Positions 1 to 8,301 of a DNA stretch of 8,301 bases are shown in pieces (position 1 is the first letter of the stretch; each line of letters opens with the position of its first letter). The position numbers and the translations under genes are program-made. The notes beneath the pieces are model-generated. The model was not told the DNA's origin and searched no databases. It saw nothing but the letters and a program-made list of their open reading frames with translations. The DNA is taken from the IMG/VR virus record IMGVR_UViG_2609460356_000006; one strand, written 5' to 3'. Source of the DNA: a virus (lineage: Duplodnaviria; Heunggongvirae; Uroviricota; Caudoviricetes).

Positions 1-348
1 AAATCGCGCCAGCGCTGGCTGTTTTACGCGTATGACAGGCTCCGGAAGACGGTTGTTGCGCACGTATTCGGTGAACGCACTATGGCGACGCTGGGGCGTC
101 TTATGAGCCTGCTGTCACCCTTTGACGTGGTGATATGGATGACGGATGGCTGGCCGCTGTATGAATCCCGCCTGAAGGGAAAGCTGCACGTAATCAGCAA
201 GCGATATACGCAGCGAATTGAGCGGCATAACCTGAATCTGAGGCAGCACCTGGCACGGCTGGGACGGAAGTCGCTGTCGTTCTCAAAATCGGTGGAGCTG
301 CATGACAAAGTCATCGGGCATTATCTGAACATAAAACACTATCAATAA
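1..348 (+). CDS. insB: IS1 transposase InsB, C-terminal part (5'-truncated by window edge)
   Basis: Frame 1 is open from nt 1 ([38 protein letters not shown]...HYLNIKHYQ-stop); the 82..348 ORF is the tail of this frame. Recognised as InsB from memory. Confidence 0.9.
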
Positions 349-363
349 GTTGGAGTCATTACC
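1..363 (+). mobile_element. IS1 insertion sequence, right-hand portion only (left part lies outside the window); right terminal inverted repeat ends at 363
   Basis: Sequence 1-363 matches the IS1 3' region from memory, including the characteristic terminus ...CACTATCAATAAGTTGGAGTCATTACC ending at 363; frame 1 encodes the InsB C-terminus. Confidence 0.9.
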
Positions 364-500: not shown

Positions 501-2270
501 TTACTTTTGATTTTCTCCACTGTTATGAGATGTATCATTCCACATAGGCATCCAGTCTTCTGAGTCGTCGTGAAGCGTGACGTTTGACCTTATGCCATGT
601 TTTGTTTTGCGCTTCTGGTACTCCTTGCCATATTCAGCCATTGCGCCTGGCATATCCGTACCGAACCTCATCAGCGATACCGGCTTGCTCAGACCATTAG
701 CCCGCATATAAGCCAGATAAGCGTGATACAGATAACGGCGCGGGCTGAATGGCACGATCTCGGCATTGCCAATCAGCATTCCATCACAAACCACCGAAGC
801 CATCAGGTAGCCGCAAAAGTCCACCAGTGAATCCCCTTCACGTTTGATGGCCAGCGCTTCTTCTGATTTCTGCTGCTCATGCAAAAGCTGTTTGGCTTCG
901 TCCTGCCTGGAAAAGCGAGTGAGCAGGTGGCGAATGATTACAGCCAGCTCACCTTCAATCTTCTCGGCCAGCATAGGATCGCGTTCGTTTTCCGGTACCA
1001 CTTCGGAGAAGTTGAAAATCACCCGCCGTCTGGAAACCCCCCCGCTTCTGTCGCTGAACGACATGGCATTGTTATTGACGGCAAGCACCACCGCTGGAAT
1101 ACGGGTTGAATATGGCGCTTTGTGTTTAGGGTCAATGGCTACCTTATCCCCGCCAGTGATAGCTTTAATCCCTGCGCCGTCGCCAGCGTACCGGGTCATA
1201 TCCGGCATGATAATCAGCGAATAGCCCACTACCAGCGCCCTTTCCCTTGGGTTCTCCAGCGCCGCCATGCTCGCTGATACGGTGTTGGCCTTGCCCGCCA
1301 GCATCGTGCAGATCTCAGCCATAACACTTTTACCACTTCCGCCCGGCCCCGTTACCTCAAGAAACAGCTGCCAGTCGTACCGGTTCGCCAGCACCATAAA
1401 CAGCGCAGACAGTACGCGGTCTGCTTTTCGGTCATTATCCGCCACTGAGCGGCGGAGCCATTTCCAGAAGTTCGGCGCATGGGTTGCCAGAGTCTCTCCT
1501 TCTGCTGGTTCGCTGAATGGCAATTCGCTCGCAACGATAAGCCAGTCCTTTTTATCATGCGGTCGAAATTGGCCTAACCGGGTATCAAAAACCCCGTTGC
1601 TGAAACCAATAAGATTTCGGGCTGTATTACCCATCACTGGCAGACCCAGCTTCATTGTATCGACAGCGGATTTAATCGCGTTCTGCGAATAGGCGACTTC
1701 GGCATCAATAAAAATTTGCGCCATTTCCCGCTGTAGCTCTTTATCCGAAAGCGGAACCCACACCACGCCGTTGTAATGATGAACCGTGTCAGAATCAGCA
1801 TGGATCGCCAGATTGCCATCGTAATGAGCAAGCAGAACCTCCCCGCGCTGGCTGGCTCCCATCTGGTTAAGCGCTGGCGTAGCACTACCCCTCGTAGTCA
1901 CCATTAGGGGCTCGTCTTCCAAACGCTTCATTAATGGCGTCCAGTCCTCTTTCTCACCTTTTTCGTTGATAAACTCAGCATTGGTAACGCCAGCCTCACA
2001 CAGCTTATTTGCAATCATGCTGATTTGGTTTTGCTCGATAAGTCCGGCCTGACAGACACGAGCAAACCGACGGCCTTTATCAACAATGCGCAGGTGTGGC
2101 AATTCCGCCAGTTGGGTGTGATCCAGAACCACAGGTGGAACATCGTCTCCATGCTCGCCCTTGCCTTTCTGGTAATCCTGAGCGGCTTTCCATGCTCCCG
2201 TTCCAGCAAAGATGATGGCCTCCTCCATTTTGTCGCGCGGGAGGGTTTTCACATTAGGCGCGTTTTTCAT
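501..2270 (-). CDS. P4 alpha-like replication protein: P-loop (SF3-type) helicase of the phage/plasmid primase P4 family, probably with C-terminal iteron-binding domain
   Basis: 589-aa ORF with Walker A GPGGSGKS (aa 308-315) and Walker B-like LIIMPDM; sits at the end of a small-gene operon and directly upstream of the TGTTCACC-type iterons. Confidence 0.85.
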   Translation of the reverse strand: MKNAPNVKTLPRDKMEEAIIFAGTGAWKAAQDYQKGKGEHGDDVPPVVLDHTQLAELPHLRIVDKGRRFARVCQAGLIEQNQISMIANKLCEAGVTNAEFINEKGEKEDWTPLMKRLEDEPLMVTTRGSATPALNQMGASQRGEVLLAHYDGNLAIHADSDTVHHYNGVVWVPLSDKELQREMAQIFIDAEVAYSQNAIKSAVDTMKLGLPVMGNTARNLIGFSNGVFDTRLGQFRPHDKKDWLIVASELPFSEPAEGETLATHAPNFWKWLRRSVADNDRKADRVLSALFMVLANRYDWQLFLEVTGPGGSGKSVMAEICTMLAGKANTVSASMAALENPRERALVVGYSLIIMPDMTRYAGDGAGIKAITGGDKVAIDPKHKAPYSTRIPAVVLAVNNNAMSFSDRSGGVSRRRVIFNFSEVVPENERDPMLAEKIEGELAVIIRHLLTRFSRQDEAKQLLHEQQKSEEALAIKREGDSLVDFCGYLMASVVCDGMLIGNAEIVPFSPRRYLYHAYLAYMRANGLSKPVSLMRFGTDMPGAMAEYGKEYQKRKTKHGIRSNVTLHDDSEDWMPMWNDTSHNSGENQK

Positions 2271-2647: not shown

Positions 2648-2838
2648 TTTGTCTCTCCCATGTGCAGCTCGGCGATTAATGCCCGGTGAATTTCCTGATT
2701 AAAATCACACGCAATAGAAATCAGATTCAGCAGCGTTTCTGAACATTCAGCAGAGGCTTTTTCCAGGATGGTTTCGTAAAGTGATGAAGCCAGCGCTGAT
2801 TTATATTCGGCCTGCTCCAGACAGATTGGCTCACGCAT
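2644..2838 (-). CDS. Hypothetical small protein (64 aa) in the replication operon
   Basis: ORF overlapping both neighbours by a few nt; no recognisable motif. Confidence 0.5.
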
Positions 2839-3022
2839 AGCGAACCTCCTGAACTGGTAGACGGCCAGCGCATACCATCACGCAGCCAGCCGGTGATTGC
2901 TCACGGGCTTCGCGCTCAGTGTTAGCTGTGATGTGAATGACGTTGCGACCGATGGCGCTCAGTGCAAGAAAACGCCAGATGTAGGACTTCCGCCCTTGCG
3001 GGTGTGTGATATGATCTTTCAT
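2831..3022 (-). CDS. Small Ash/Icd-like protein (63 aa), first gene of the leftward operon (position analogous to P4 kil)
   Basis: Internal ATG at 3022-3020 of the long 2831..3805 ORF, preceded by GAGG 5 nt upstream; product [63 protein letters not shown] resembles the Ash/Icd-like small proteins of P4-like islands (from memory). Confidence 0.6.
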
Positions 3023-3109
3023 AGCTGCCTCGTTACTTTCGCTAACGGTGGTGGTTAGAGGCCCGGTTAGTGTTCCACCACTGCCGGGCTTTGCTTTACT
3101 AAAAGTCAT

Positions 3110-3169
3110 GCAATGTAGTACATTGTCAACTCCACTACAGACTAGACCACAGGAGTTGACAATGTCAAC
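3110..3169. promoter_or_regulatory. Divergent control region with palindromic operator-like sites
   Basis: Perfect palindromes CAATGTAgTACATTG (3110-3124) and GTTGACAaTGTCAAC (3155-3169, centred on the RHH start codon), extra half-site TTGTCAAC (3123-3130); 13-bp inverted repeat CATTGTCAACTCC (3121-3133) / GGAGTTGACAATG (3152-3164). Confidence 0.5.
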
Positions 3170-3335
3170 AAGCGAAAATAAAGAGCGCCATGTTGTGCAG
3201 CTCAGACTCGATAAAGAACTGTCAGAGCGGCTCGCTTTAGCGATGAAAGAAGACGGTGACGATAATAAGTCGGGATGGATAAAACGCCTTTTGCGCCGTG
3301 AACTTGATAAGCGCGGCATCGAGCCAAAAGGCTGA
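3162..3335 (+). CDS. Ribbon-helix-helix-type small DNA-binding protein (57 aa), candidate repressor of the divergent operon
   Basis: ATG at 3162 preceded by AGGAG (3151-3155); N-terminal beta-strand pattern [12 protein letters not shown] followed by two predicted helices. The 3048 start of the ORF track lacks an RBS. Confidence 0.65.
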
Positions 3336-3421
3336 ACAGGGTTACTCCCCGTAATGCTGTGGACTGCCCCTCTTAAAAAGGGTCTGTTTTGCGCAACTAT
3401 TAATGAGTTGTGCAGAGGCTC

Positions 3422-3445
3422 CCCTCTTAAAGAGGGTTGGTTATC
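3422..3445 (+). terminator. Possible weak hairpin terminator
   Basis: CCCTC-TTAAA-GAGGG stem-loop (3422-3436) followed by a T-rich stretch; a similar but weaker copy at 3367-3382. Confidence 0.3.
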
Positions 3446-3654
3446 TTCGCAGCTCTCTACGTTTTTCGTCGGAGCCTCTAAACCACGTTTAACGTTGTTT
3501 TGCCATGAACCCGAATACTGTTCGCCTTTGTCTCGATCTCCGTACGTTAAACGTACGCGGTTAATTTGTGCGTACGGATTTCGTCGGCTCAAGGTTTGAC
3601 CACCAGCGGCAAGCCTGGTAATCTGGCGATGTTTCTGTAAAGCGGTATTGCACT

Positions 3655-3683
3655 GGCGGCCCGGCATGGCCGCCTTTGTTTTG
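3655..3683 (+). terminator. Rho-independent terminator for a plus-strand transcript
   Basis: Stem GGCGGCC (3655-3661) / GGCCGCC (3668-3674), 6-nt loop, followed by TTTGTTTTG (3675-3683). Confidence 0.6.
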
Positions 3684-3687
3684 CCTG

Positions 3688-4380
3688 TCATACAATAGCC
3701 TCCACTTTCAGCCCGCCAGCGGTATACCCCTGAACCCGAACACCATCGACGCGATGACGCTTTTTCGTCAGAAAGCGGATGTGATCTGCGTAGACGTACT
3801 GCCATTTACCATCGAGTGCCACACGTTTAAACCACGGATGAGGCTTAGATATGGTCTGGACAACTGGCGCGGAAGCCTTGCAGGGCGTGGGTTCTGCTGT
3901 GCATACCCCCTTATCGTTACCCGTTACTCTATACAGCCAGTAACTTGCCAGCTTCCCGGTCAATTTACGGGTGCGCACGGGGATATAACCCGCCTCACGC
4001 ATCGCCTTACCAAAAGTGGCATCGTCCGGGTAATACTGGCGGCGTAGTTCCGTAGATACTGAAACGGCAAAGCTGCGTTTAGTCGGGTATTCCTGCCACT
4101 GGCCGACAAATTCAAAAGGAAGACCATTAACCCTTCCTTTGGTCTTGTCCTTGCCGCTTATCCCTACATCATGGTCTGCCTCATGCACGGACACGCCGGA
4201 ACGCAGCCACACCAGCCCGTTACCGTTGTGGCGCAACCCCAGATCGGCAAGCGTAAATTCACCGCGATTAATGGGCGACCAGTCACCGGAAATAACCTGT
4301 TTACGGTTCGCTGAAATATCGTGCTGGCTGGCTACAGGGTGAGCGAATCCCTGCCCGTGGAGGGCATTAATCTTTTTCAT
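3688..4380 (-). CDS. Conserved hypothetical protein (230 aa) downstream of alpA; possibly the inovirus Gp2 / YfjJ-like family (low confidence)
   Basis: Long ORF with SD-like AGGT about 9 nt upstream, 20 nt after the AlpA-like stop (operon). Family guess rests on synteny in P4-like islands only. Confidence 0.75.
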
Positions 4381-4400
4381 CTCAGATTACCTGTGGTTAA

Positions 4401-4685
4401 TTAAGCAGATTTACGGCTGTATGGGTTATTGACGTTCTCTACTGCTGGCGGATTACGAACCCACCAGAGCACATCCGAAAGAAGCCAAGCACAGCTATTG
4501 CGGCCAAAGTGACAGCGCGGAGGGAAGCGCCCCTGCTGCTCCATCTTCCAGCGGCTGGAACGGGAAAGACTGGTGATCTCGCTGCATTCATCTTCACGGA
4601 TTCGGCGATCAAACTTAAAGCCGTACTCTTCTAAAAGGGTGCGGCGCTGTTCAGGATTTGGCGGGGTAAAGGTTATATTTTGCAT
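4401..4685 (-). CDS. alpA: AlpA/Vis-family phage transcriptional regulator (MerR-like HTH), 94 aa with N-terminal extension
   Basis: SLSRSSRW...GRFPPRCHFGRNSCAWLLSDVLWWV aligns by eye with the AlpA HTH and W-x3-EVxxW motifs; GGAGG upstream of the ATG. Confidence 0.8.
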   Translation of the reverse strand: MQNITFTPPNPEQRRTLLEEYGFKFDRRIREDECSEITSLSRSSRWKMEQQGRFPPRCHFGRNSCAWLLSDVLWWVRNPPAVENVNNPYSRKSA

Positions 4686-4737
4686 GCTGCCTCCACTGTT
4701 TCAATGTTATGCGAAGAGATTAGTGGATAAACGACCA

Positions 4738-4807
4738 GAATTTCCATTGATTCTGGAATCCTTTAAAAGAACATGCAATTCCATTGAAAGATAGAAATTC
4801 CATCAAG
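4738..4807. promoter_or_regulatory. Repeated AATT(T)CCATYRA motif upstream of alpA (three direct copies plus palindrome GATTCTGGAATC)
   Basis: TTCCATTGA at 4742-4750 and 4779-4787, TTCCATCAA at 4798-4806; palindrome 4750-4761; inverted copy TTTCAATG at 4698-4705. Confidence 0.35.
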
Positions 4808-4940
4808 ATAACGCTCCCCTGTTTAAAACAGTTTCCACAGTAATTTCAACGGCTGTCTCGAGAGAAAAAATCATGAATTTCAATAACTCGCCGAAGATCA
4901 CCGTTCTTTAACGATTTGATTCACCTTGGATTGTTCATAA

Positions 4941-5000
4941 CAAAGATGAACAATGATGAACGCTGATGAACAGTGATGAATAACCATGAACAAAGATGGA
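4941..5000. repeat. Six tandem 10-bp units nnnGATGAAC (iteron-like, TGTTCATC on the other strand), candidate ori
   Basis: GATGAAC at 4945, 4955, 4965, with GATGAAT at 4975, CATGAAC at 4985, GATGGA at 4995, all in strict 10-bp register; inverted TGTTCAT at 4932-4938. Confidence 0.5.
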
Positions 5001-5040
5001 AAAAGTTAGCAAGTAATGACCTAGTAGGGACCGTGGATGG

Positions 5041-5140
5041 AGCTAGGTATTGTTAGGTGCTGTCGGGTGCCGTTACGTGTCATAACGTGTCATTACGTGT
5101 CGTTGAATGCTGTTGAATGCTGTTGAATGCTGTTGAATGT
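5041..5140. repeat. Phased decamer array continuing the 10-bp register
   Basis: TGTYRGGTGC x2 (5051-5070), CRTWACGTGT x3 (5071-5100), YGTTGAATGY x4 (5101-5140); no unique spacers between units. Confidence 0.6.
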
Positions 5141-5275
5141 AACGGTAATACACATCAAATATAACAATTGAATCTCCTTGGCGATCATAGAATCGCCAAA
5201 AGCTCCAACAAATATAATTAATTAGTATTTTCACATGAAATATAAATAATACCTACTAACACTGCAAAATAATAT

Positions 5276-5926
5276 TCATTCCGTATAATAAATCGAATTT
5301 AATGCCTTTCGAATTTTCTCATATATTGCTGATTTAGATAATCCAGTTTTAGATATACCTTCCTCATCAGCTAATTTATATAGTTCGTTTAAAATAGCCG
5401 AGATGCTTGGTTTTTTAGAGGTGCCAAACGAATGGCCTATCTTATGTGCTATAAGCTTGACCAGCATCCCCATTAATTTATCATTATATTCCTTTTCATC
5501 TTCTTTACGATGCAAGCCGCGTTTGCTGCTTTTCAATGCAATTCCGACCTGTAAAAGCTCATCCCCTCCCATAGCATAAAGATGCTCTTTTCCTTTGTTT
5601 TGATTAGCAATTATAGCCACCGCCGCAAGGCATCTGTCCTTTATGGGTTGTGGTGTAATATCTTCATCAATAAGAGGATATGCCAGAGCAAACATATAGT
5701 CTGCGGGATAGGCTGTTGAGTTTCCACCTCGAAATAATTTAGATGCTGATAACCATCTACTCAGTTGTCGATAGTATATATTGTAAGCTTCAACTTTCGC
5801 TTCAGGGATATCAGCAGTTTTAACTGTCGGATCTACCCCACACATAAGTAGTGCAAGTTGTTTAATATTTAGCTCCGGGGCTTTGGCTTCTCGCTCGAAA
5901 ATACCCAATTTTAGAAAACTAGTCAT
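5276..5926 (-). CDS. AT-rich cargo protein of unknown function (216 aa) with a C-terminal HTH-like segment, start/stop-coupled to int
   Basis: ATG (5926-5924) overlaps the integrase stop as TAATG; sampled 60-nt lines give roughly 27-45% G+C against about 65% in a sampled line of the replication module; C-terminal ISKTGLSKSAIYEKIRKAL resembles an HTH; no family recognised. Confidence 0.75.
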   Translation of the reverse strand: MTSFLKLGIFEREAKAPELNIKQLALLMCGVDPTVKTADIPEAKVEAYNIYYRQLSRWLSASKLFRGGNSTAYPADYMFALAYPLIDEDITPQPIKDRCLAAVAIIANQNKGKEHLYAMGGDELLQVGIALKSSKRGLHRKEDEKEYNDKLMGMLVKLIAHKIGHSFGTSKKPSISAILNELYKLADEEGISKTGLSKSAIYEKIRKALNSIYYTE

Positions 5927-7146
5927 TATTCAGCCTTATTCAACAAAACAATGTTAGTGAATCCACCTGATAAAATATCAAGTCTGTCATACCATTTATT
6001 CAACGCATCCAGTTTCTCAGGCAAGTACAGACTACGGTTATAAATCGCCATGACTCCCGGCATTGAGTGCCCCAGCAACTGTTCGACAACGTGTGGTGCT
6101 ATACCCATATTATTCATATGCGTTGCTAAAGTTCGTCTTAGATCGTGCAGTGTCCATGGTTCAGAATGCCCTAGCTTTTTATAAACGCCGCGGCCCCACT
6201 GACTTACCGCTTCACTGCCTTTAACCGACCCAAGCAAAAGGCCGGATCGTTTCGTTTCATCATGCAGTATTTCAATGAATTTGCGCATGGCATCCGGCAC
6301 AGGTCTTACAATCTTCTCGCCACCCTTGCTGTGCTCTTTGGGAACTGTCCAGACCCAGGCATCCATATCCCATTCACTCCACTCTGATAGCCTGGCCTCC
6401 TGCGTTCGGCACCCAAACACTATTAAGATTGTCAGTAGCCTGGTGTAGTAAGGCATGAAGCAAGTGCCAGAGGAAATGGCAGCCCATAAATCGCCAGCCT
6501 CTTTATCGTTTAATACCCGGTCTTTTTTTGCCTGTTTTTTACCGACATCTGGAATTGTTAAATCTTCAAGCGCGGTACTCACAGCATAGCGACGAACCCG
6601 GCAGAATTTCAGGGCTTGTTTGCACATCTGGAACACATAACCTGCGGCGACTGGAGTTTTCTTTTTCATCCTGTCAAAGCAGTCAAGCCAGTATCGTGTT
6701 TCACAGTCAGCGAGCGCCATTTTCCCTATATAAGGATAAATGTGTTTTCGCAGCTCCGCTTTGTGCCGTTCAACATTCGCGCGGTTCTCTTCTGCATATT
6801 CGCGTATCCAGTATTCTATAGCTTCCTTAACAGTGACCGGTTTAAGGGTTTCCTGAGTAGTCAACGCCAACTGGTGCTTTGGATCTTTACCTGAGGCCAG
6901 CCACTGGCGGCATTTATCACGCGATGAACGGGCTTCTTTGAGGCTCATATCCGGGTATCGTCCCAGAGTCAGACGATGCAGCTTCTGCCCGTCAAGTCGG
7001 TAAGTAAACACCCAGCTAATACCACCAGCTTTAGTTACCTTGGCGCTCAGCCCGGCACCATCAGCATAGAACTCAATCTTACTGGCCGGGATACCATGTA
7101 ATCCCTTTAACTTCCTGTCGCTCAGTTTGTTAAGTTCGCCAGCCAT
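5926..7146 (-). CDS. int: Tyrosine site-specific integrase, P4-like family (406 aa)
   Basis: N-terminal arm-binding-type region (LSDRKLKGL...WVFTYRLDGQKLHRLTLGRYPDMSLKEAR), catalytic motifs HDLRRT, LLGHS and downstream Tyr; N-terminus faces the host junction. Confidence 0.9.
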   Translation of the reverse strand: MAGELNKLSDRKLKGLHGIPASKIEFYADGAGLSAKVTKAGGISWVFTYRLDGQKLHRLTLGRYPDMSLKEARSSRDKCRQWLASGKDPKHQLALTTQETLKPVTVKEAIEYWIREYAEENRANVERHKAELRKHIYPYIGKMALADCETRYWLDCFDRMKKKTPVAAGYVFQMCKQALKFCRVRRYAVSTALEDLTIPDVGKKQAKKDRVLNDKEAGDLWAAISSGTCFMPYYTRLLTILIVFGCRTQEARLSEWSEWDMDAWVWTVPKEHSKGGEKIVRPVPDAMRKFIEILHDETKRSGLLLGSVKGSEAVSQWGRGVYKKLGHSEPWTLHDLRRTLATHMNNMGIAPHVVEQLLGHSMPGVMAIYNRSLYLPEKLDALNKWYDRLDILSGGFTNIVLLNKAE

Positions 7147-7164
7147 AGACCACCCAGCCCAAAG

Positions 7165-7254
7165 TGTTTATACAAATGTTTATACAGAATTGCTTGCATA
7201 ATAGCATAAACAAAGAAAAACACTGGAACAATATACAGGCATGAATTTATACAA
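7165..7254. promoter_or_regulatory. Repeated TTATACA(R) motif in the int upstream/att region, candidate arm-type integrase sites and int promoter region
   Basis: Tandem TGTTTATACA at 7165-7174 and 7177-7186; related ATATACAG at 7231-7238 and TTTATACAA at 7246-7254; AT-rich. Confidence 0.35.
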
Positions 7255-7316
7255 CGCATTGATTATTATATGAATATTAAAATCATCTAAAAGCATGAAA
7301 ACAGCTAATATGACAG

Positions 7317-7331
7317 TACGGCATGAACTAA
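7317..7331 (+). other. fis: Displaced 3' end of host fis (codons Y-G-M-N-stop), marking the island/host junction (att core region)
   Basis: TACGGCATGAACTAA encodes YGMN-stop, matching the Fis C-terminus ...KKYGMN as I recall it; upstream codons are CAG preceded by an in-frame TGA, so similarity to fis breaks here. Confidence 0.45.
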
Positions 7332-7358
7332 TTCAGGTTAGCTAAATGCTTGATTAAA

Positions 7359-7392
7359 AAGGCGCTACTCGGCATGGGGAAGCGCCTTTTTT
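7359..7392 (+). terminator. Rho-independent terminator, probably the native fis terminator
   Basis: Stem AAGGCGCT (7359-7366) / AGCGCCTT (7381-7388), 14-nt loop, then TTTTTT (7387-7392); A-run on the 5' side makes it potentially bidirectional. Confidence 0.65.
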
Positions 7393-7416
7393 ATAGGTGT
7401 CACAAAGGGAGTGACC

Positions 7417-8301
7417 ATGAGAACAGGATGTGAACCGACCCGGTTTGGTAATGAAGCTAAGACCATTATTCACGGTGATGCCCTTGCCGAACTTAAAAAG
7501 CTACCTACTGAAAGCGTCGATCTGATCTTTGCCGACCCACCGTATAACATCGGTAAAAATTTTGATGGTCTGATCGAAGCCTGGAAAGAAGATCTGTTTA
7601 TCGACTGGCTGTTTGAAGTGATTGCAGAGTGCCACCGCGTTCTGAAAAAGCAGGGCAGCATGTACATTATGAACAGTACGGAAAACATGCCCTTTATCGA
7701 TCTCCAGTGCCGCAAGCTTTTTACCATCAAAAGTCGCATCGTCTGGTCATATGACAGTTCTGGAGTACAGGCGAAAAAACACTACGGCTCCATGTACGAA
7801 CCCATCCTGATGATGGTGAAAGACGCAAAGAACTACACATTCAACGGTGATGCTATTCTGGTAGAAGCCAAAACCGGATCGCAGCGCGCGTTGATCGATT
7901 ATCGCAAAAATCCTCCACAGCCATACAATCATCAAAAAGTACCGGGTAACGTCTGGGATTTTCCGCGCGTGCGTTATTTAATGGATGAATATGAGAACCA
8001 CCCGACGCAAAAACCGGAAGCCTTACTGAAACGCATTATTCTCGCCTCTTCCAACCCAGGCGATATCGTTCTCGACCCGTTTGCCGGTAGCTTTACTACC
8101 GGTGCCGTAGCCATCGCCAGCGGACGAAAATTCATTGGTATTGAGATCAACAGCGAGTACATCAAAATGGGGCTTCGACGGCTGGATGTCGCGTCGCATT
8201 ACTCCGCGGAAGAACTGGCGAAAGTGAAAAAAAGAAAGACGGGCAACCGGTCAAAACGATGCCGGGTTAGCGAAGTTGACCCCGATCTCATTGCAAAGTA
8301 A
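7417..8301 (+). CDS. yhdJ: DNA N6-adenine methyltransferase (beta-class, DPPY motif), host gene
   Basis: ATG at 7417 preceded by AAGGGAG (7405-7411); product MRTGCEPTRFGNEAKTIIHGDALAELKK...DLIFADPPYN, 294 aa, recognised from memory as YhdJ. The GTG at 7411 in the ORF track is probably not the start. Confidence 0.85.
   Translation: MRTGCEPTRFGNEAKTIIHGDALAELKKLPTESVDLIFADPPYNIGKNFDGLIEAWKEDLFIDWLFEVIAECHRVLKKQGSMYIMNSTENMPFIDLQCRKLFTIKSRIVWSYDSSGVQAKKHYGSMYEPILMMVKDAKNYTFNGDAILVEAKTGSQRALIDYRKNPPQPYNHQKVPGNVWDFPRVRYLMDEYENHPTQKPEALLKRIILASSNPGDIVLDPFAGSFTTGAVAIASGRKFIGIEINSEYIKMGLRRLDVASHYSAEELAKVKKRKTGNRSKRCRVSEVDPDLIAK

Follow-up and report, generated by a model that had tools for sequence, protein, structure and literature searches.

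The junction between int and yhdJ very probably marks attR of a capsid-forming-lineage PICI at the 3' end of fis

How do the last codons of fis come to stand in front of yhdJ, downstream of an integrase gene and without the rest of fis? The question is raised by a stretch of 8,301 nucleotides of viral DNA (Caudoviricetes; IMG/VR record IMGVR_UViG_2609460356_000006), here called the window at its full length, in which positions 7147-7392 lie between int and yhdJ. An earlier note, made from the letters of this DNA, had read the locus as an island that inserted into the end of fis and displaced the original 3' end of the gene to this junction. We arrive at much the same reading: with a probability of roughly 95%, 7147-7392 represents attR of a PICI of the capsid-forming lineage, which its own tyrosine integrase has placed at the 3' end of fis. 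The window carries the right junction, with fis and attL lying outside it, and integration at fis is proved in relatives of the element, not in the source genome. The features on which the following is based are collected in Table 1.

Table 1. Features of the window, with positions counted from its first nucleotide.
Feature	Position	Strand	Remarks
IS1 right end	1-363	+	InsB C-terminus ORF 82-348; relatives align only from 364
Primase/helicase replication protein	501-2270	-	Pfam D5_N, DUF5906, Pox_D5; PHROG DNA primase
AlpA-family excisionase/transcriptional activator	4401-4685	-	Pfam Phage_AlpA; phrog_2790 'excisionase and transcriptional regulator'
216-aa gene between int and alpA	5276-5926	-	phrog_30524, unknown function
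Tyrosine integrase, fis-targeting clade	5926-7146	-	Pfam Arm-DNA-bind_3, Phage_int_M and Phage_integrase; PHROG integrase
P arm of attR	7147-7316	no strand	island DNA from the int start codon to the crossover core
Doubled word TGTTTATACA-aa-TGTTTATACA	7165-7174 and 7177-7186	+	putative integrase arm-type sites
Conserved P-arm block AACACTGGAACAATATACAG	7219-7238	+	nearly invariant from E. coli to Proteus
Core identity block TACGGCATGAACT	7317-7329	+	common to attL, attR, attB and attP
Displaced native fis 3' end, codons Y-G-M-N and TAA stop	7317-7331	+	TACGGCATGAACTAA
Native fis intrinsic terminator	7356-7395	+	found by folding; identical to K-12; now separated from fis by the island
yhdJ, DNA adenine methyltransferase	7417-8301	+	Pfam N6_N4_Mtase; chromosomal gene flanking attR

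The fis end itself is confirmed. Its sequence occurs a single time in the whole window, and the translation agrees with the YGMN-stop that the earlier note had given as the C-terminus of Fis; allowing up to two mismatches, 0.03 matches would be expected by chance. The note had proposed an alignment with an island-free fis-yhdJ region. With K-12 MG1655 every position agrees from 7317 up to 7420, the last one aligned, through the fis end, the spacer and the terminator into the beginning of yhdJ; left of 7317 there is no relation between the two. The reading frame that enters from the left is indeed a foreign one and is ended by TGA at 7311-7313, so that translation across the junction reads '...*QYGMN*', with asterisks for stops. 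The terminator, likewise announced by the note, escaped a consensus terminator scan owing to an internal mismatch in its stem, and folding was used instead: the hairpin at 7356-7391 with its U-run gives -24.2 kcal/mol (z = -4.1). ARAGORN found no tRNA gene in the window, and neither a tRNA/tmRNA gene nor a 3' fragment of one is present at the junction, in line with the statement that the island does not sit at a tRNA gene. An Rfam scan of the window returned no family at gathering threshold; permissive thresholds produced just sub-threshold chance matches, over the terminator and elsewhere.

The left counterpart of this junction was found in relatives. Among 5426 complete E. coli genomes, 5309 have an empty site in which fis is directly followed by yhdJ, while 19 carry the int-yhdJ junction of the window. 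In relatives with the latter junction TACGGCATGAAC(T) is present at both ends of the island. The island of strain OW1E2 measures 16,257 bp from core to core, and an intact fis (98/98 aa) stands at its far end; S163-2 possesses a version deleted by IS1 (9,665 bp), again with an intact fis and with the core at both ends. The second junction and the repeated core, which the earlier note had suggested looking for, are thereby at hand, and the displacement of the original fis end is supported. A second core copy closing an intact fis, i.e. attL, was met not only in OW1E2 and S163-2 but also in EA2 and in Scandinavium.

At attL of the relatives, the fis coding sequence ends with ...AAAAAATACGGCATGAACTGA and the island supplies the stop codon, TGA for TAA. 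The island also brings its own version, nearly identical, of the fis terminator, with a folding energy of -18.3 kcal/mol as compared to -24.2 kcal/mol for the native one. Island DNA in this way restores fis. The identity block comprises 13 bp, i.e. the four terminal codons of fis plus the first stop-codon base, and as it is common to attL, attR, attB and attP, strand exchange must fall within it. The window-type island shares only these 13 bp with the attB of E. coli because its attP continues in the Klebsiella style (TGATAC), whereas E. coli-adapted islands, e.g. that of strain EA2, have ~80 bp in common with attB.

Starting from fis, the island of OW1E2 consists of a DUF3892 gene, genes for TerL, TerS, an HNH protein, head-tail connector, head closure, portal, prohead protease and major capsid protein, followed by two hypothetical genes, a primase gene, a DUF4222 gene, an Icd-like gene, an AlpA-type regulator, the 216-aa gene and int, beyond which lies yhdJ. 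Together these genes make up a capsid-forming PICI, and the window is the right part of an OW1E2-like element. Relatives of 15-16.5 kb contain capsid and packaging genes and lack a tail module and lysis genes, the one exception being a CDS annotated as tape measure in the accessory region. No minor-tail genes appear in the annotation of the relatives, and none of the 10 window ORFs scanned matched a tail family in Pfam. The gene order also corrects the idea that int had been placed next to the gene of a global regulator: int adjoins yhdJ, ~16 kb away from fis, and is transcribed toward the interior of the island. The fis-proximal end holds the packaging and accessory genes.

Further observations were made at the same site. 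A gene of ~2.3 kb with the annotation 'tape measure protein' lies at the fis-proximal accessory end of two different fis islands (GenBank LR881103, here L030, 2036-4333; L028 10618-12906), with no other tail genes near. In E. coli WCHEC035148 (L028 10526-10600) the fis core is used by a different element of 9.5 kb, whose integrase is 54% identical and which encodes a VapE-type replication protein and lacks capsid genes; it brings an unrelated terminator rather than a copy of the fis terminator. At two Xenorhabdus loci (L016 ~640-740; L018 ~9690-9790) the attR core is followed by a terminator copy and then by TTTATACAAATGTTTATACA, which is the P' arm word of another integrase subtype. This suggests that a second island, or a remnant of one, resides there in tandem at fis.

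The integrase was used to assess how widely this arrangement extends. A scan with one genome per species yielded 20 relatives with 64-100% identity, from Enterobacter to Xenorhabdus, the hosts being Enterobacter, Klebsiella, Pluralibacter, Brenneria, Pectobacterium, Rosenbergiella, Rahnella, Proteus, Xenorhabdus, Serratia, Erwinia, Yersinia, Scandinavium and an Enterobacteriaceae MAG. In all 20, TACGGCATGAAC is found 170-200 bp upstream of the int start (with a single mismatch in Proteus mirabilis), and it is absent next to int in three matches of at most 47% identity. In other fis islands of E. coli the integrases share 54% and 62% identity with that of the window; across fis-sited integrases the range is 54-100%, expressed as pairwise identities. 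Phage integrases do not exceed 34% identity, two records excepted. At the other extreme, the integrases of K. pneumoniae ATCC 13883 and E. hormaechei are ~99.5% identical to the window's, i.e. 2 residues apart.

One match came from a search of phage records with the integrase: LR881103 (vB_KppS-Ant), 16.5 kb, whose integrase is 99.5% identical and whose record title reads 'Escherichia phage'. The DNA derives from particles on K. pneumoniae DSM 30104, was reported to be >99% identical to a region of that genome and was described as a filamentous ssDNA prophage (PMC8006926). Between its last late-region gene and int, LR881103 contains a joined attP made up of the P arm, TACGGCATGAAC, TGATAC..., the terminator copy and the doubled TGTTTATACA. 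The junction of the circular or packaged form, for which the earlier note had proposed a PCR, exists in particle DNA. The P arm of LR881103 shows 1 mismatch to 7144-7316 of the window, and the integration module as a whole (3534-7400) is 97.4% identical. Further left, identity is only 87% at 2443-2974 and 93% in the primase gene, and no alignment of at least 200 bp was obtained for 2975-3533; from this unevenness we conclude that the window element is a mosaic. With the island in the chromosome of K. pneumoniae ATCC 13883 (L006), LR881103 shares 99.9% identity. We take ATCC 13883 and DSM 30104 to be the same strain, and on this assumption, together with the >99% statement of the particle study, the ATCC 13883 island is equated with KpCIDSM30104. 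By sequence, LR881103 would be the packaged form of the capsid-forming PICI of DSM 30104/ATCC 13883, with attP intact.

Within the window, the island genes follow the same plan, with several details worth recording. The integrase obtains no family name from NCBIfam (PRK09692 scores 72 bits, the cut-off being 434), and for the 216-aa gene neither Pfam nor NCBIfam gives a match. Between this gene and alpA, 590 bp (4686-5275) are without any ORF of more than 53 aa and probably constitute the control region of alpA. Downstream of alpA, a gene for 230 aa (3688-4380, minus strand) matched no entry of Pfam, NCBIfam or PHROG; the gene in this place is termed variable region in the literature on capsid-forming PICIs. 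An ORF of 324 aa (2831-3805, minus strand) runs uninterrupted both in the window and in K. pneumoniae ATCC 13883 (L006 13456-14430) and is annotated as CDS in LR881103; for OW1E2, the RefSeq annotation is limited to an Icd-like gene of 63 aa at the 3' end of this ORF, whose upstream two-thirds translate into an odd Arg/Ser/Gly-rich sequence, give no Rfam match and may be non-coding regulatory DNA. The P arm, which probably also holds the int promoter, displays conserved blocks in an alignment spanning 10 genera or species. A promoter search of the P arm returned one promoter-like site (7291..7262, minus strand), no more than chance gives. The AACACTGGAACAATATACAG block is retained in Rosenbergiella and Xenorhabdus despite their different arm word, and may bind an accessory protein or form part of the int promoter.

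The fis site is well documented. Tommasini, Mageeney & Williams (2023, NAR Genom Bioinform; PMC10111431) mapped 2642, later 3565, 'fis' genomic islands, classed them as PICIs and gave TACGGCATGAACTAA as consensus block, which can reach into the terminator. For one of these islands, Kpn47.16.fis of K. pneumoniae BAA-2146, mitomycin C-induced excision within TACGGCATGAACTGATAC and replication are on record in earlier work cited there. The earlier note had called a fis-end site unusual; this does not hold, since it is the published and experimentally backed target of a whole integrase clade. In the supplement of the same paper, the attR displayed for Eco10135.17.fis, ~135 nt that span the junction, agrees by eye with the window, and the attL given for this entry agrees with those of OW1E2 and S163-2. 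The window shares with the published fis PICIs the TACGGCATGAACT(AA) block at the fis terminus followed by the fis terminator, a tyrosine integrase of the fis clade adjoining attR, and AlpA in the absence of any tail-family match among the window ORFs scanned. The published islands, e.g. Eco10135.17.fis and Kpn47.16.fis, have the same target and identity block as window-type islands, the same int-alpA integration zone followed by a replication zone, and a terminator copy that extends the identity block. Nothing essential differs; the copy in the window also has IS1.

Capsid-forming PICIs were defined as a family in bioRxiv 10.1101/2022.09.08.507074, and induction, packaging and inter-species transfer were described for KpCIDSM30104 and EcCIGN02175 (bioRxiv 10.1101/2025.02.11.637232). 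Their order of int, 216-aa gene, alpA, variable gene and primase is that of the window. Their packaging module (capsid, protease, portal, head-tail adaptor/connector, HNH, TerS, TerL) is present in the closest relatives, whereas the window ends at IS1. The accessible parts of these two papers make no mention of fis as attachment site. Restoration of the target is likewise known from other integrases that target gene ends, e.g. at icd (PMC10111431). As in those cases, attP of the fis islands replaces the displaced end and the target stays intact, but only 4 codons are concerned here and the replacement is mostly stop codon and terminator.

From these elements a course of events can be proposed. 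Recombination inside the 13-bp core of the island attP and the chromosomal attB yields the two junctions: attL, at which the fis coding sequence is whole and takes stop codon (TGA for TAA) and terminator from the island copy, and attR as in the window, with P arm, core, original TAA, native fis terminator and yhdJ. The N-terminal arm-binding domain of Int would bind the doubled TGTTTATACA words at -152 in the P arm and at +81/+83 in the P' arm. Judging from its domain content (Arm-DNA-bind_3 plus catalytic domain) and from established tyrosine-recombinase biology, Int would bridge arm sites and core, and on the same grounds AlpA would act as excisionase and activator upon induction by a helper phage. 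After induction the island would be excised, replicated by its own primase and packaged. A regulatory link to Fis, either through int lying beside fis or through read-through from fis into the island, was considered and is ruled out by the geometry, because int is at the far end and the island's own terminator directly follows fis.

Three other explanations deserve consideration. That the 15 nt of fis arose by chance, or are left over from an unrelated rearrangement or deletion of fis, could be entertained as only four fis codons are in the window and fis itself is outside. We regard the likelihood of this as negligible: in addition to the low number of matches expected, the K-12 identity runs through the fis-yhdJ spacer up to 7420, the core lies beside every related integrase in 20 species, and relatives with intact fis and duplicated core as well as the joined attP in particle DNA have already refuted it. 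It is also very improbable that we are dealing with a small temperate phage or with a P4-like satellite instead of a PICI. LR881103 was deposited as a phage, and the architecture of Arm-DNA-bind_3 plus catalytic domain is common with P4-type integrases. To this extent the label 'P4-family' in the earlier note is justified; it fails for the element, which is a PICI of the capsid-forming lineage and resembles P4 only in the domain architecture of its integrase and in its D5-type primase. The set of features that marks P4-like satellites (Psu, Delta, Sid, Epsilon, alpha primase, tRNA site) is not what the window presents, and among those of its ORFs that were scanned with Pfam and PHROG there were no Psu, Sid or Delta domains. 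AlpA together with a D5-type primase is the layout of PICIs, the relatives have capsid and packaging genes without tail module or lysis genes, the single CDS annotated as tape measure aside, and the integrase shares no more than 34% identity with those of phages, two records excepted. Moreover, no prophage was recorded at fis among the 3565 islands (PMC10111431).

A more serious alternative accepts the junction as real but takes this particular copy for an immobile, decayed remnant, in which the island portion to the left of the primase gene, perhaps with the packaging module or attL, was split or lost through IS1. IS1 does adjoin the island at 363/364, 137 bp past the stop codon of the primase gene, and this IS1 junction has no match in any complete E. 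coli genome, the best of which is 97.6% identical to the window. IS1 is also met in other islands of this kind: it removed the replication region in S163-2 (L001 17582-18279), and it is located inside the island in TUM9754 and DETEC-P61. On the other hand, int, the 216-aa gene, alpA and the primase gene are full-length, the P arm is one base off particle DNA, and a simple insertion of IS1 into non-coding DNA past the primase gene need not block excision. We consider decay of this copy possible, without favouring it; the assignment of 7147-7392 as attR of a PICI of the capsid-forming lineage at fis applies to a remnant as well.

Since site, junction sequence and element family have all been published, the finding as such adds little. 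Something further may be learned from the attP arms. Doubled words of 9-10 nt with a 12-bp period start at -152 to -154 from the core in the P arm and at +81 to +83 in the P' arm, where they lie just past the terminator copy. Both arms were available from reconstructed or observed attPs of three integrase subtypes, represented by OW1E2, S163-2 and LR881103 (window type), EA2, and Scandinavium (positions: window 7165-7186; L004 2792-2814; attP arms of L029, L022 and L030). In four elements the doubled word of the P arm returns at +81/+83 in the P' arm. In the P arms of the 20 integrase relatives the -152 position is occupied in 18. The exceptions are one Xenorhabdus locus (L018), which failed the simple test by a mismatch, and Proteus columbae (L014), in which the word is tripled with the first copy at -164. 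The more distant E. coli WCHEC element (L002/L028) has no clear doubled word.

While the position is kept, the sequence of the word varies with the integrase subtype. It is TGTTTATACA for the window type, TGACTGCAC for EA2, GTGATACAC for Scandinavium, GACTACAC for Yersinia, Serratia and Erwinia, GTACCCCAC for Rosenbergiella and GATTACCCCAC for Xenorhabdus. Two cases separate the parts of the integrase. The Proteus integrases are 79% identical in residues 1-95 and 65% in the rest, and the word TGTTTATACA is kept. The Rosenbergiella integrase shows the opposite, with 61% in residues 1-95 and 80% in the rest; its N-terminus resembles that of Xenorhabdus, and so does its CCCCAC-type word. In these comparisons the arm word tracks the N-terminal domain of Int and not the catalytic part.

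This bears on a published distinction. HE-PICIs possess a doubled attP motif, tgTGTATTGCantgTGTATTGCa, at 81 and 132 bp from the centre, which was called unique to them and absent from the attPs of fis PICIs (PMC10111431). HE-PICIs belong to related integrase clades according to the same paper, and they have one tandem doubled word per arm, co-oriented and at fixed distances, as do the fis islands; they differ in targeting late genes of prophages instead of chromosomal fis, and in the word, which varies also among the subtypes of fis integrases. In our reading the doubled-word architecture would be common to HE-PICIs and fis PICIs, with only the word being different. From sequence comparison, we think it likely that the doubled attP motif is a general feature of the integrase clade, as it is present in every fis subtype examined bar two unclear cases, with the word following the N-terminal domain and the core being fixed by the coding constraint of fis.

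For annotation, the locus shows that the 170 bp separating int from the remnant of fis are an attP arm rather than junk, and that a short 'fis end' of this kind is an att core and not a pseudogene. As to its biology, the island would be a mobile satellite of the capsid-forming type, the integrase of which recurs almost unchanged, 2 residues apart, in E. coli, Klebsiella and Enterobacter. The covariation of arm words with the integrase is a modest, testable refinement of attP recognition in this clade; if true, recognition of arm and core would evolve as separable modules in these satellites.
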